A DNA stretch of 64,000 nucleotides, taken from positions 324 to 64,323 of the forward strand of contig NVUY01000015.1 of the NCBI GenBank assembly GCA_002733215.1, written 5' to 3'. A model generated the notes under the pieces. It was not told where the DNA came from. It worked only from the letters and a program-made list of their open reading frames with translations, and made no database searches. This document shows, in pieces, positions 10,468 through 15,725 of the stretch. Both the position numbers and the translations under genes were made by a program. The DNA is from Sulfurovum sp. (GTDB taxonomy: Bacteria > Campylobacterota > Campylobacteria > Campylobacterales > Sulfurovaceae). How positions within the stretch are numbered: position 1 is the stretch's first letter; every line of letters begins with the position of its first letter.

Positions 10468-11088
10468 ATGAAAAATATATTATTGGTTGTTTTGCTTAGT
10501 GTGTTTGGGTTGGCCGCTAAGGTTAAACATACTACTTTCACTTGTGAGTTTACTACGTATGCTACAGAAAAAGGCAGTTTTTCTGATGATGTTATGAGGT
10601 TTACGCTGGTGACAAATGACAATAACAGTACATATATACGCAAAGGGAGTAAAGATGAATTTCGAGGGAAGATCCTTAGAGGAGACAAAGGACTATCTTT
10701 TGTTGAAGTGAGTAAACGGAACAATATTACTACAACGACTATGTCCAGTCTTTCTTCAGATAAAGACGAACACAAAGCAGTACATAGCAGTAATAGACTT
10801 TTAGATGGTAAACTTTTGGCCAGTCAATACTACGGAACATGTCATCGTGTAGATGAGATCTTAACTCAAAAAGTAAGTTTTCCTATTTCACCAAATAGAC
10901 GACGTAAGATCATTAAGAAGTTAAATGTTGATCAGGAAATAAAAAAGCTCTCAAAACAAGATGCTAAATATGTTAAGGATGCACTCAGAGGAGTATTCCC
11001 TTCAAGACAGGAGATGGAACAGGATATGAGCATAGAGGGGATGATCCTTGTCGGCAGGATCATGGATGACGCAATGAAAGCGAAGTGA
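10468..11088 (+). CDS. hypothetical secreted protein
   Basis: Signal peptide; 206-aa ORF with RBS. Confidence 0.7.
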   Translation: MKNILLVVLLSVFGLAAKVKHTTFTCEFTTYATEKGSFSDDVMRFTLVTNDNNSTYIRKGSKDEFRGKILRGDKGLSFVEVSKRNNITTTTMSSLSSDKDEHKAVHSSNRLLDGKLLASQYYGTCHRVDEILTQKVSFPISPNRRRKIIKKLNVDQEIKKLSKQDAKYVKDALRGVFPSRQEMEQDMSIEGMILVGRIMDDAMKAK

Positions 11089-11112
11089 TTTTTATAGAAA
11101 GCAAAGTGATTT

Positions 11113-11583
11113 CTATATGGCTCTTCTTTCTTTCCTTCTTTCCTCTCCCTGGTAGACTGCTGCATCACTCTTAGGTGTCAAGTCTCTAAAATCTTTATTT
11201 AGGTTGACACCTGACATTTTTTCGAATTCGTCAAATTCACTAGGGTCTATAGTAAATGAAATTTCGGTAATGTGGAGCATATTCCACTTCTGATCGAGAA
11301 CTTCTTTTTGAAATGCGACATGGACAGAAGATATTTTTTTATCATCGCCTTCTTCTTTATTATCTTCGTAGGTATACTTTAGGAACATTGGTAAGAGTTT
11401 GAGTTCCTGTATTTGGTCTATTTTCCCCCACTTTGCTTTGGCAATATTATCTTCATTTGCATTTACATTTTCGCATCCGAAACATCTTCCAGTTAAAATT
11501 CTCTTAAAAGTTCTGCCTGGAGGATCAGGAACGTACTCTTTTTCCTTTTTTTTGGAAAATACATTTTTAAATAATCCTAGCAT
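11113..11583 (-). CDS. hypothetical protein
   Basis: AAGGA RBS; CxxC motif (CFGC). Confidence 0.65.
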   Translation of the reverse strand: MLGLFKNVFSKKKEKEYVPDPPGRTFKRILTGRCFGCENVNANEDNIAKAKWGKIDQIQELKLLPMFLKYTYEDNKEEGDDKKISSVHVAFQKEVLDQKWNMLHITEISFTIDPSEFDEFEKMSGVNLNKDFRDLTPKSDAAVYQGEERRKERRAI

Positions 11584-11734
11584 CAATATCTTCCTTTGTC
11601 TTTTGTTATACAGTATATCTTTTAAATATTGAATATTTTTTTAGAACTTTAACCCTCATAAATAGTATTTTTTTTCTTATATGCATGAGCTTTTATATGA
11701 AAGTAGAAGAGTAAGGAAATATATGATTGGGAGA

Positions 11735-12000
11735 TCAGATCAAGAGGTCAAGCTTGTTGCTAAGCTTAACTTCTTGATAGCGTGTACATTTGAGTTACTT
11801 TAACAAGTTTCTCAACACCTGGGTCATGTTTGACCTAGGAGTCTATCCTCGTCCAAATTCGAGTTTGGACTTACCTTTTTAGAGTGCCAAGTTTAACTCT
11901 TAACTGTAGTATAGTAAAAAACAGATCGAAAGTTAAGGGCATATTTGAGAAACTTTATTTTCAAATATGCTTTAGTTGGAAATGACTACATTTCCTGATA
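11735..12000 (-). ncRNA. candidate structured non-coding RNA(s)
   Basis: Series of hairpins downstream of minus-strand -10 hexamers at about 12005-12010 and 11909-11914; no long ORF. Confidence 0.4.
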
Positions 12001-12010
12001 ATCAATTATA

Positions 12011-12065
12011 TGAATTTAATATGAACTGAGTGTGAACTGAGTGTGAACTGAGTGTGAATTTAATT
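12011..12065 (-). promoter_or_regulatory. five tandem 11-bp direct repeats abutting a minus-strand TATAAT
   Basis: + strand TGAATTTAATA / TGAACTGAGTG x3 / TGAATTTAATT. Confidence 0.65.
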
Positions 12066-12075
12066 TTAGGAATAT

Positions 12076-12095
12076 TCCACCCAAAAGAGGGTGGA
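12076..12095 (-). terminator. hairpin after cytochrome gene
   Basis: TCCACCC-aaaaga-GGGTGGA; weak U-tract. Confidence 0.5.
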
Positions 12096-12110
12096 GTAAA
12101 GAAGTTTTAC

Positions 12111-14600
12111 TTAAAGTGCTTCAGTATAACTTCCTACTTCAGTGACAAGAAGTTTTTTTGCATCACTTGCCGCCTGGTCTAGCCAACCATCAGAACCTGT
12201 AAGGAACTTACCATTTGCACCTTTTTGCATATAGTATATTTTATACGTCGCAGATACACCAGTTAGCCCTGTAATATCGTAAGTGGTTGTATATGTCTCA
12301 GTCTCATTTGGACTTAGACGGTTATCACTTTCAACCTTGTTCGAATCAAATCCTGGACGGACCACAAATACAGAAGGTGTAGATGTATTGCTATCAAGAT
12401 CATACATTTTCCCTGTTTCGTGACCATAGACTCTTGTAAAGTTACTAAGGTTACTGTCAATGGCAATAGCAGCATTTGCAACATCTCCTGTTGTTGTACC
12501 AGAAGTAGAAACAGTTTGATTTGTAAGTGTTGTATCTGTACCAGGGATTCTCACTGTTGTACTATCAAACTTTTGTGAAGTGACTGCACCATTTAAATCT
12601 GGAACTTTTCCAGGGAAACTTAGATCTGCACTTCCATTATTGTGTACCGGTACTAGAGCTAATGCACTTTCATGAAGTACTTTACCTTGAAGTGGTTGTA
12701 CATCATTCTCAATGTTTGTAAATGTTGATGTACCTGTACTGCTTGCTACATCGATCATAGCACCTGTGCCATCTGTAACGATCACACGACTTAACACACG
12801 ACGCATAGGGTGTGCACCTGGGAACATGTGGGCAGTTTTATTTGTAAATATAGTTGTAACGGTTAAAGTATCACCTGTAACACTTGTGCTTATAGACCCT
12901 GCAAATCCACTTTGAATTTTAGCAGTAGCAGATGTTTTATGACCTGTTTTACTTGCACCTAAGAAAGCATGTGAATTAAACCAGCCATCACGCTGAGGGT
13001 TGTCTCCAGCAGGAATAGTTGTATCTTTTTCATCCAATTGAGGGGTTAGATCATATCCTACGGCATCTTTAAATGTTTGTGCATCAAAACTCAAGTCTGG
13101 TCTTGCCCATTGATGAAGAAGGTTACCTTCTATTCTTTCCATGTGACATTTCTGACATTTTGGAGAACTTAAACTATCGTTAATCGCTGTATCTCCGCCT
13201 GTTGTCACTGCCATTTGTGTGGAACAAAGTTCCATAAATTGACCCGGTACTGCTGGAGTTTTTGCACCTGCTGAACGTTGGTGACAGGTTAAACATAAAG
13301 ACTTACCGTGGTCTCCAGCTTCACCTGTAGTGATCTCTTTATCACCGAAATGATTGTTGGTGTCTGCATCAAAGTGAGGGTTAATAAGTGCTATACGGTC
13401 AGTCTGATCATCAGCATTTTCATTTGACTTACCACTAACTCCATATGGTCCGTAGTATGGCCCACCGGTGTAGTGTGTTTTACCGTTTGTTCCATTGATA
13501 TCTACACTTGTCATTGTATAGCGACCATCACTCGCTCTTTTAGATACATCATCCGCATCTTTGTTAGTGTTGTTGTAAGCTACTGGCTTTTCAGGTCCCC
13601 ACAGTCTGAAGAAGTTATTCATATCTTGACTGGAAGCATTGTTATCTTGGTTAAGGATCGTAGCCAATGATCTAATAACAGGTCCATGTGCCCCAGATCT
13701 CATATCTTTTTTAAGTGTATAGGTATCACCACTTTTCATCAATCTAGGTGTTTCTACACTGTGACAAAATGCACAGCTAATACCTTCTTGATTTGATTGG
13801 TGACCAACTTGATAGGTTGCTTTGTATAATTTTTTTGTCCCCTTACTCACAGCAACAACACTTACTGGAACAGTTGCATCAAAAGTTCCTGTCGTAGATA
13901 TAGAGTTAGTTTGCTCAGCTTTCTGTGCAGCAAGTAGTTCATCTGTAGTAGCTATAGGTGAACTAGGAAGTTCAGTGATACTGATACTGAAGTCATTTGC
14001 ATAAAAGGCACCAGGAGCATGACATTTAATACATGTTTTTGCAGCACCTTTGAACATACTTTTTGTACCAACACCAACAGTTGCTTCTTCATAAACGATA
14101 CCAGGACCAAAGCCATCATCCTTAGCACTTAGATCTTCACCAATCTTATTAATATGCGTTCTTAAAAAGTCCTGCATTTTAGACTGGAAGATCGGATCTG
14201 TCCAGGACTTACCATGCATAGAGTCTTTCCATGTATCATACAGTTCATTATGACAATTTTGACACTTATTTTTTGGACTGTCAAAAAGTGTACTTCCATA
14301 GCCTGTACCTGTATGGTATTCGGCTTTAGCAGCTGAAGGTGGTGAAACTCTTGTTCCTCCTGTATAATCTACATATTCTATGTCCCCATTTGCTAATATG
14401 GTTTGATACCCTAATTCACCTGGTTTTGGATCTGTTGAACCTGGTGGTGGTGTTACAACAGGTGGCGGTGTCACACCTGAAGGTGGTATCTCATCCCCTA
14501 CCACATACGATATTCCTCCACCATTATCACATCCGCTTAAAGCGAGTAAGGCAGATATGGAAAGCATCAGTGCCCATGTTTTAAAGTTTGTATATTTCAT
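12111..14600 (-). CDS. multiheme (5 CxxCH) c-type cytochrome lipoprotein, c554-like N-terminal domain
   Basis: Lipobox LSGC; Pro-rich linker; CQNCH, CIKCH, CAFCH, CLTCH, CQKCH; WxxSMH motif. Confidence 0.9.
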   Translation of the reverse strand: MKYTNFKTWALMLSISALLALSGCDNGGGISYVVGDEIPPSGVTPPPVVTPPPGSTDPKPGELGYQTILANGDIEYVDYTGGTRVSPPSAAKAEYHTGTGYGSTLFDSPKNKCQNCHNELYDTWKDSMHGKSWTDPIFQSKMQDFLRTHINKIGEDLSAKDDGFGPGIVYEEATVGVGTKSMFKGAAKTCIKCHAPGAFYANDFSISITELPSSPIATTDELLAAQKAEQTNSISTTGTFDATVPVSVVAVSKGTKKLYKATYQVGHQSNQEGISCAFCHSVETPRLMKSGDTYTLKKDMRSGAHGPVIRSLATILNQDNNASSQDMNNFFRLWGPEKPVAYNNTNKDADDVSKRASDGRYTMTSVDINGTNGKTHYTGGPYYGPYGVSGKSNENADDQTDRIALINPHFDADTNNHFGDKEITTGEAGDHGKSLCLTCHQRSAGAKTPAVPGQFMELCSTQMAVTTGGDTAINDSLSSPKCQKCHMERIEGNLLHQWARPDLSFDAQTFKDAVGYDLTPQLDEKDTTIPAGDNPQRDGWFNSHAFLGASKTGHKTSATAKIQSGFAGSISTSVTGDTLTVTTIFTNKTAHMFPGAHPMRRVLSRVIVTDGTGAMIDVASSTGTSTFTNIENDVQPLQGKVLHESALALVPVHNNGSADLSFPGKVPDLNGAVTSQKFDSTTVRIPGTDTTLTNQTVSTSGTTTGDVANAAIAIDSNLSNFTRVYGHETGKMYDLDSNTSTPSVFVVRPGFDSNKVESDNRLSPNETETYTTTYDITGLTGVSATYKIYYMQKGANGKFLTGSDGWLDQAASDAKKLLVTEVGSYTEAL

Positions 14601-14747
14601 CTTTTCCCCTTTTTTTTACATATATTAAGTGACAACAGTGTCCCCATATCACTCTTAAGATCGGTACTACCGACACCTTTAAAGACCAGTCCAATAAGTG
14701 TCAAAATAGACACCACGAATAATTGAAACAGATAATTTTATAATACA

Positions 14748-14768
14748 AGTGTTAATTAAGTGTGAATT
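14748..14768 (-). promoter_or_regulatory. 11-bp direct-repeat pair upstream of cytochrome promoter
   Basis: Minus strand TTCACACTTAATTAACACTT directly before a -10-like hexamer; same core as the 12011-12065 repeats. Confidence 0.5.
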
Positions 14769-15122: not shown

Positions 15123-15725
15123 TTGAAAAAAATAGCATTATCAGTAGTGACAGCAGTAACAATAAGTAGTTTGGCGTTTGCAGGTGGAGATGTTGCACCG
15201 GTGGTGGCACCTGTGGTGATAGATGAAGTGAGACCTTTTTATATAGGTCTTGGTCTTTCTGCTGTGAGTACCCGTGATTCCCGTACCTCATTGAAGTTTT
15301 TCGACAATAAGGATGGACAAGAGGAAACGGGAGATGTCTCCGCTATGGTGGGATATGATTTTAACCCGTACATCGCGATAGAAGGTCGCTACATGACTTC
15401 TATGTGGTATGAAGATTCTCTTAATAGAAACTCATGGGGGATCTATGCGAAACCGCAATATCCTGTAACGGATGAGTTTTCTGTGTATGTACTGCTTGGT
15501 TATGGCGGTATGCGTGTTAACAGCATAAGTAGAAGTCTTATTCATGTACATGATACAGGTTTTCAGTGGGGTCTGGGTCTAAGTTATGCCGTGTCGGAAC
15601 ATGCGGACGTGTTTTTTGATTATGTGGATGTTGCAAATAATATGGATTCAGATATCTTTGATGGCGTACCTTTTGCAGAAGTGGATTCAGATGCACTTAC
15701 CGTGGGTGTAACTTATAATTTTTAA
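15123..15725 (+). CDS. outer-membrane beta-barrel (OmpA-like/porin family) protein
   Basis: Signal peptide, alternating beta pattern, C-terminal GVTYNF. Confidence 0.9.
   Translation: MKKIALSVVTAVTISSLAFAGGDVAPVVAPVVIDEVRPFYIGLGLSAVSTRDSRTSLKFFDNKDGQEETGDVSAMVGYDFNPYIAIEGRYMTSMWYEDSLNRNSWGIYAKPQYPVTDEFSVYVLLGYGGMRVNSISRSLIHVHDTGFQWGLGLSYAVSEHADVFFDYVDVANNMDSDIFDGVPFAEVDSDALTVGVTYNF

Follow-up and report, generated by a model that had tools for sequence, protein, structure and literature searches.

Members of the genus Sulfurovum are major primary producers in sulfidic habitats. Among the small RNAs placed under two-component control are OmrA/B, under OmpR, and the csRNAs, under CiaR. In Helicobacter pylori, RepG and NikS are described as Hfq-independent small RNAs (PMC8322730), and the two-component system CrdRS is known for copper excess and nitrosative stress (PMC9696931; 10.64898/2026.06.29.735229). 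DccRS of Campylobacter jejuni resembles the case described here as an OmpR-type pair of the same order which activates genes for periplasmic and membrane proteins (PMC9449129), and so does SulRS of Sulfurimonas, an OmpR-type pair of vent Campylobacterota that binds direct repeats around positions -51 to -17 (PMC12936845). The present work concerns a 64,000-nucleotide stretch from Sulfurovum sp. (contig NVUY01000015.1), called the window here, which is contig C44 of a genome of 2.65 Mb and 85% completeness (G000). On its minus strand, to which all plain window coordinates below refer unless stated otherwise, a repeat box with the unit TTMAYAC and an 11-bp period occurs at the promoter of a pentaheme c-type cytochrome gene (12111-14600) and again at the promoter of a non-coding element downstream of that gene. 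We consider it reasonably probable that this is a regulator box by which the cytochrome gene and a separate, likely small-RNA gene share activation within a wider copper/redox regulon. An OmpR-family response regulator would bind the repeats and activate both genes; as with PhoB and CreB, a phosphorylated dimer would presumably recruit RNA polymerase.

The initial annotation had described repeats of 11-bp period ahead of a -10-like hexamer at two places, and both groups are present. At the cytochrome promoter (14735-14766, score 27.2), the units TTCACAC (14766-14760) and TTAACAC (14755-14749) are followed by the -10 hexamer TAAAAT (14740-14735), with a predicted start at about 14728. At the element, TTCACAC begins at 12058, 12047, and 12036 and TTCATAT at 12025, and a fifth unit, TTCA-TATA at 12014, overlaps the -10 hexamer TATAAT (12010-12005). 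All five of the units announced for this site exist, exact TTCACAC being found in three of them only, but they are not equivalent. The promoters of the closest metagenome homologues (L232 and L235) match otherwise and carry only the 12036/12025-type pair and the unit overlapping the -10 hexamer, so that the two extra TTCACAC units (12037-12058) look like a recent 11-bp tandem duplication. As these two are missing from the homologues and the fifth overlaps the -10 hexamer, the working box is likely one pair of units at both sites. The element promoter proper, P1 (12005-12036, score 19.1), thus consists of TTCACAC, TTCATAT, and TATAAT with a predicted start at about 11998, and at both sites the TAnnnT hexamer starts 26 bp past the first base of the proximal pair. 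Within the window, TTCACAC-N4-TTMAYA is matched four times and nowhere but at these two sites; 100 shuffles averaged 0.04 matches, and none of them reached four. Pairs of units, exact or with one mismatch, peak at a spacing of 11 bp (six, vs. 0-3 at 16 other spacings), and genome-wide, loose boxes with a TAnnnT after them number 12 at a gap of 8 bp vs. 0-2 at nine other gaps. Direct repeats, period, and a fixed position in place of the -35 element bear out the earlier reading as an OmpR/PhoB-type site; the box likely replaces the -35 element at both promoters and is a candidate binding site of an OmpR-family regulator.

The same box recurs well beyond the window. The 20 best matrix matches in the genome, seven of which are training sites, all lie outside long open reading frames (ORFs), many of them 56-70 bp ahead of a start codon, and a score above 20 is reached at just 11 of 5.3 million genome positions. 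A strict pattern of box plus -10 hexamer is present in 78 of 116 genomes of the genus, while the reversed pattern, used as a control, gives three matches in all. Orthologues of the cytochrome are found in 14 of 201 genomes of the family, G000 included, and also in G014. The box, for which the matrix was trained without the window's own sites, is conserved before these orthologues: at the 12 other loci with upstream DNA it is strong in seven (scores 24.5-28.7), weak in two (13-15), and absent from three, and all strong cytochrome boxes end in TTAACAC. The earlier reading, which would have been refuted had the motif not been conserved ahead of orthologous cytochromes, withstands this check. The box is the signature of a wider regulon.

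Past the repeats, the next ORF on the same strand starts at 11586, about 420 bp away, close to the gap of about 400 bp that had been noted. The region 12000-11700 folds with a z-score of -5.8, and none of 100 shuffles is equally stable. Within it lies a conserved core (11851-11890) consisting of UUGGCACU, a variable spacer, GGUAA, and a GUCCAA/UUGGAC hairpin with variable loop; UUGGCACU, GGUAA, and the GUCC/GGAC stem are invariant, and the stem is kept although spacer and loop vary in length. It is followed by hairpins at 11839-11818, 11815-11790, and 11778-11739, the last being the likely RNA end, and homologues have other hairpins in the same place. A covariance-model search finds the core in 10 of the 116 genus genomes, six of which supplied training sequences, behind the box in six and behind the stop codon of a multicopper oxidase in four. 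The first search model gave 28 matches in 25 genomes, of which 10 were accepted at an E-value of 3e-5 or better; nine weaker matches were inspected and all lie within coding sequence, the remaining nine being left uninspected. A pattern search returned 10 matches, five of them discarded as coding (four in carB and one other).

Three contexts can be distinguished. In G000, G010, and G014 the boxed element stands before a gene for a 157-residue protein and contains a second promoter. In G062, G122, and G130 it lies at another locus, facing a convergent comF-like gene, with a perfect box and the core about 22 nucleotides past the predicted start, followed by two further hairpins and by no gene on the same strand. 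In G042, G044, G012, and G055 the core is found directly 3' of the stop codon of a CueO-like multicopper oxidase gene, whose promoter in G042 has related TTCATA repeats at the same offset. The 12 matches of a metagenome scan comprise seven boxed copies, three unboxed copies with an element like the second promoter, and two in unrelated contexts (L228 and L229); L226, L233, and L234 are boxed and stand alone at the other locus, opposite a convergent gene, and in L230 the G010 contig recurs. No Rfam 15 family corresponds to the element (best E-value 2.8 in the window region), nor does any match the RNA in 16 homologous or related loci. With a second model searched against 141 genomes of the order, only three weak matches appear beyond G000 (E-values 5e-4 to 3e-3), none with the full core, so that among the genomes searched the family is not found beyond the genus. 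Such a range fits a report that non-coding RNAs of this class show poor conservation from genus to genus (PMC3847290).

The element has its own predicted promoter, a 3' hairpin, and no conserved reading frame, and on these sequence grounds it is likely to be a genuine small RNA. A reading as a small peptide was discarded: no peptide is conserved, and a 23-codon frame that the window contains is truncated in G010 and begins in a palindrome which G062, G122, and G130 lack. A riboswitch or leader was rejected as well because no gene follows in those three genomes. The downstream non-coding transcript postulated earlier thus has its counterpart in a conserved, folded, boxed element, but a second promoter inside it, P2 (11908-11970), had been overlooked. 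P2 is composed of the palindrome GCATATTT-N14-AAATATGC, CCTT, a fixed gap, and the -10 hexamer TATACT (11913-11908), with a predicted start at about 11901. This geometry has 11 loose matches in the genome at its gap vs. 0-5 at 12 other gaps, the element occurs in several copies in G054 and G115, and at other places it stands ahead of small genes and of a third RNA family, rich in C/U; from its sequence, the palindrome is likely the operator of some regulator. As the first long hairpin (11970-11939) belongs to this multi-copy element, the first 5' 100 nucleotides of the proposed transcript are mostly promoter DNA. Transcription may start at P1, giving about 265 nucleotides, or at P2, giving about 165, both starts being predicted; with the start at about 11901, the 5' end would resemble that of the other lineages. 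The working part of the RNA likely begins just ahead of the UUGGCACU core, as in relatives that carry it with the boxed promoter only or after the oxidase stop codon.

Copies of P2 in this genome lie at G000:C14:950 +, C24:29160 -, C33:87358 +, and C47:16725 -, with palindrome spacers of 13-14 bases. The third non-coding family found behind such palindromes has a CAACCAAGA...UCUUGGUUG stem around a C/U-rich loop and occurs in several copies per genome (L008, L009, L013, L014, and L015, near position 1500 in each; G000:C47:16725 -); two copies stand between a phosphate-transporter-like gene and a gene for a PhoB-like regulator.

Cytochrome and RNA likely both belong to a wider regulon of periplasmic copper supply and redox functions, judging from the genes that share the box, among them many for exported proteins. 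Behind strong boxes stand genes for a TonB receptor closest to the copper-receptor family TIGR01778 (E-value 1e-51, below the cut-off), for ExbBD-like and NosL-like proteins (read from sequence, NosL being confirmed on a relative), and for a Spy/CpxP-like protein, beta-propeller proteins, and a c-type cytochrome; boxed genes of relatives encode MbnP (above the cut-off) and MauG/MbnH-like, DUF2202, and DUF302 proteins. A scan of viral contigs for the TonB receptor gave no matches. A more ambitious interpretation, which we hold to be improbable, is a copper-starvation programme: sulfide would lock copper away, and an OmpR-type system would induce receptors and chaperones for copper, a pentaheme sulfur-redox enzyme that contains no copper and represents a new type with His for selenocysteine, and small RNAs, including this one, which shut down copper-consuming proteins in a RyhB-like copper sparing, the same core being released in another lineage from the 3' end of the multicopper-oxidase messenger RNA (mRNA).

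Which regulator reads the box is a question with several candidate answers, G000 encoding about eight related OmpR paralogues with much the same predicted recognition helices. The likeliest reader in this genome, as far as sequence comparison indicates, is the regulator at G000:C40:65230 (C40), with that at C23:99028 (C23) as second candidate. The C40 regulator-kinase pair is flanked by four boxes, and the number of boxes goes with it: 20 genomes with a close C40 orthologue have 5-13 boxes (median 8), seven with an orthologue at 67-72% have 1-4, and 89 without C40 have 0-5 (median 1). A C40 orthologue is present in 10 of the 13 genus genomes with the cytochrome, and in the other three the cytochrome box is weak or absent. 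In score, the C40 regulator falls far short of both the CreB and the PhoB cut-off. Cross-talk among the paralogues is probable, and because several of them could read the box, the chances that one regulator serves both promoters are about even.

Several observations weigh against shared activation of the cytochrome gene and the RNA gene as proposed here. As to the regulator, the boxed RNA occurs in G062 (98% complete) and G122 (99%), neither of which has an orthologue of the C40 regulator or kinase, the RNA is found in none of the 14 genomes that have C40 but not C23, and G004, G056, and G050 have boxes in the absence of both paralogues. The counts of regulators, boxes, and RNA across the genus come from kin genomes without phylogenetic correction and therefore overstate. 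As to the signal, which is inferred from gene content, the boxed genes mix uptake-type with resistance-type copper genes. As to the RNA, three metagenome homologues (L225, L231, and L227) lack the box, the core-only fragment 11905-11780 folds weakly (z-score -1.7), and neither the core stem, in which 46 of 50 cells are paired but invariant, nor the close lineage shows covariation above shuffles; in the G062-type group, double changes affect 7 of 27 predicted pairs, a count without control. Finally, a search for base-pairing targets by duplex energy found the best of 2295 start regions no better than three shuffled queries. A listing of sequencing runs names none of the genomes that carry the RNA, which speaks neither for nor against it.

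The regulator data might also mean that the boxes belong to different paralogues and resemble each other only as family members do, the cytochrome being under the C40-type or a genus-wide paralogue and the RNA under the C23-type system, which lies beside a gene for an RND pump and a copper-receptor-like TonB gene. A C23-type orthologue at 81% or more is present in six of six boxed-RNA genomes, C40 in only three of the six; the four oxidase-linked RNA genomes all have a C23-type match, and eight cytochrome genomes have C40 without C23 and without the RNA. In addition, the boxes adjoining C23-type genes read TTCAT-n-T/A and the RNA promoters of the window's lineage carry one TTCATAT unit, unlike the strong cytochrome boxes with their TTAACAC ending. 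The closeness of C23, however, partly reflects kinship because the query came from an RNA-bearing genome, 64 of the 116 genomes have a C23-type match, and G107, G007, and G071 have one and no RNA match. Moreover, the recognition helices are predicted to be much alike, and the RNA box of G062 is identical to the window's cytochrome box over 20 bases. We consider separate regulators rather unlikely and prefer shared activation through one kind of box.

The missing covariation bears on a second alternative, according to which the element is a stack of promoter parts with terminator-like hairpins or the leader of the 157-residue gene, and the core is a DNA operator like a degenerate CIRCE. The first hairpin does belong to a multi-copy promoter element, the core fits the CIRCE pattern with three mismatches, and a weak match of the RNA model in G266 is a CIRCE-like site before groES. 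Yet homologues differ in the spacer between the arms, which is 8-14 bases long, a latitude hardly to be expected of an operator (the CIRCE spacer is fixed at 9 bp); moreover, positions within this spacer are invariant, as is the GGAC downstream, and groES of G000 has no such site. In G062, G122, and G130 no same-strand gene follows which a leader could serve, and the 157-residue gene also occurs without the element. HrcA (PF01628) is found in none of five genomes, in a test that is insensitive because G266, with its CIRCE-like site, is negative too. With all this, a mere assembly of DNA signals seems a poor bet, and structure in the RNA is suggested by the folding energy and the replaced hairpins.

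If the RNA is real, action in trans is likely, by base pairing through its 5' core, which is invariant and unpaired, in the manner of RepG and NikS from Helicobacter. It might instead be a decoy that binds a protein, or whose purine-rich AAGGUAA stretch sponges C/U-rich small RNAs of the same regulon. An invariant sequence without compensatory change and without an mRNA target above shuffles would agree with a decoy, as would a second boxed RNA family in which UUACCUU is found near the 3' end in five of eight aligned copies. However, CsrA-type GGA motifs are not conserved across homologues, the family-2-like copy in G000 lacks the complementary stretch, and within family 2 this stretch is predicted to pair in cis. 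We judge the decoy quite unlikely and keep to the trans-acting RNA.

The second boxed family comprises about 130 nucleotides with a UCCCUUUU loop resembling an anti-Shine-Dalgarno sequence, has long stems and no Rfam match, and occurs at L155:2875-3024 -, L157, L161, L189, L192, L198, L202, and L206, with a relative lacking a clear box at G000:C7:42170-42064. Boxed sites followed by C/U-rich folded non-coding stretches lie at G000:C6:48167 -, C28:79341 + (with a homologue in L182), and C28:21559 -. Other boxed genes encode secreted peptides of 44-48 residues whose mature part would start with His-His, which belong to no Pfam or NCBIfam family and possibly bind metal (L152:2634-2777, L153:351-482, L154, L184, L192, L198, L199, L200, and L206); one pattern found none of them in G000. 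A variant box, TRCACAC, with the same geometry precedes genes for a CopA-type ATPase and likely metal-resistance genes beside another OmpR paralogue (G000:C20:14055 +, C20:29463 -, C5:17673-19959). A small c-type cytochrome gene follows three paralogous regulator-kinase pairs (G000:C20:21267-21611, C23:97534-97893; L158:6865-7167), possibly as a redox-sensing accessory. Near boxed genes in G130, a match to a cyclic-di-GMP-I-type riboswitch (L198:1907-1985 +) scores just below the gathering threshold.

Cytochrome and RNA had initially been annotated as one regulon module, an idea that does not hold because just two of the 10 RNA genomes, G000 and G014, are known to have the cytochrome as well. 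In seven of the other eight (G010, G062, G122, G130, G042, G044, and G055, G012 being left out) no cytochrome was found, the match in G042 spanning residues 1-83 only. The two are directly adjacent in G000 alone, a boxed DUF302 lipoprotein gene standing between them in G014, and it is likely that they became neighbours only through local rearrangement. The hairpin past the cytochrome stop codon (12076-12095), likely a terminator, follows the stop as had been noted and is kept after the orthologues of G014 and G119, but has no U-run and is not listed by the terminator scan.

The cytochrome itself, correctly recognised as pentaheme, has 829 residues with five CxxCH motifs (Cys113, 190, 276, 436, and 482) and is a predicted lipoprotein with an invariant Cys24 and the fold of pentaheme cytochrome c552. 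The structure of this protein from Thermochromatium tepidum, 5ZE8, ranks first in sequence and fold searches (Z 11.6, root-mean-square deviation 3.7 over 278 residues), the latter made with a second structure model built from 35 sequences for residues 61-727 (predicted local distance difference test, pLDDT, 84). A first model from 11 sequences was poor (pLDDT 49.8), and its weak matches to toxin folds were disregarded. MccSep comes second by sequence (E-value 0.009) and is missing from the fold-search matches of the predicted model; the similarity to ExtKL is 25.8 bits against a cut-off of 250. The family is small, with 37 clusters at an E-value of 1e-30 among 1.84 billion representatives. All 13 family members have an extra Cys459, which none of 17 distant matches shares, and His597 occupies the position of the MccSep selenocysteine, being His in 11 of 12 family members compared and Met in one. 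The protein is predicted to be a membrane-anchored redox enzyme with one His/Cys-ligated heme that likely acts on sulfur compounds.

Ahead of the cytochrome gene, a predicted mRNA leader of 128 nucleotides (14601-14728) contains several hairpins, and its sequence is not conserved among orthologues. The orthologue in G004 (L044:1402-3741) is broken by a single TAG stop and has a weak box. Divergent from the cytochrome gene, the window encodes an outer-membrane beta-barrel protein (15123-15725, plus strand), and a similar gene in G014 (L033:2195-2800) lies between box and cytochrome on the same strand. The 157-residue gene downstream of the RNA (11113-11586) belongs to no known family and has its own -10-like TATACT at about 11617-11612; a 21-bp tandem duplication (11076-11117) lies between it and a convergent gene for a 206-residue protein.

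Compared with known systems, the box matches the cre/blr tag, an OmpR-family repeat of the same 11-bp period in the -35 place, and the three TTCACAC units of the element fit TTCAC-N6-TTCAC exactly; in contrast, phylum and gene set are different, and the units here read TTMAYAC. The DccR box is reportedly WTTCAC-N6-TTCACW, nearly the same as the box here; its TTCAC-N6-TTCAC portion fits the upstream units of the element but not the cytochrome box (TTCAC-N6-TTAAC). Regulator matches across the order lie at 39-52%, and the gene set of DccRS, whose regulator is Cj1223c, includes, as far as described, no small RNA, cytochrome, or copper-uptake genes (PMC9449129). The box also resembles the CrdR core (PMC9696931; 10.64898/2026.06.29.735229), but the boxed genes here tend towards the uptake and delivery of copper; in G000 the CopA and Cus-like genes carry the TRCACAC variant beside another paralogue. 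SulRS differs in its repeat, TTACA, and in targeting sox clusters (PMC12936845), no sox gene being among the boxed genes listed here.

The cytochrome shares with 5ZE8 and MccSep five CxxCH motifs in similar order and a C-terminal beta domain. For the polysulfide reductase MccSep, a Cys239 that ligates heme 2 and a Sec325 are described (10.1101/2025.11.18.688581); the former is likened, by spacing only, to the conserved Cys between hemes 4 and 5. The present protein differs in its length (about 830 vs. 435-450 residues), its lipoprotein signal, and its His instead of Sec/Cys at U325, and it is outside the MccSep family. With OmrA/B, the csRNAs, RepG, and NikS, the element has in common that a small-RNA gene carries the regulator box of the regulon's protein genes; it differs in having no sequence likeness to them, a purine-rich core rather than a C/U-rich anti-Shine-Dalgarno loop, and three promoter contexts within one genus. 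A literature search, from whose coverage most subscription journals were excluded, brought up no publication dealing with small RNAs of Sulfurovum or with the box. The outcome is a defined box together with two candidate regulators, a list of genes, and a family of RNA not yet catalogued, seen in three promoter contexts. Its weight would grow should the signal turn out to be copper limitation, or should the cytochrome prove to be a relative of the MccSep polysulfide reductase that does without selenium. Regulators with an RNA arm are already known, and the system described here is likely an undescribed member of that kind, with a real box, a likely real RNA, and a wider regulon.

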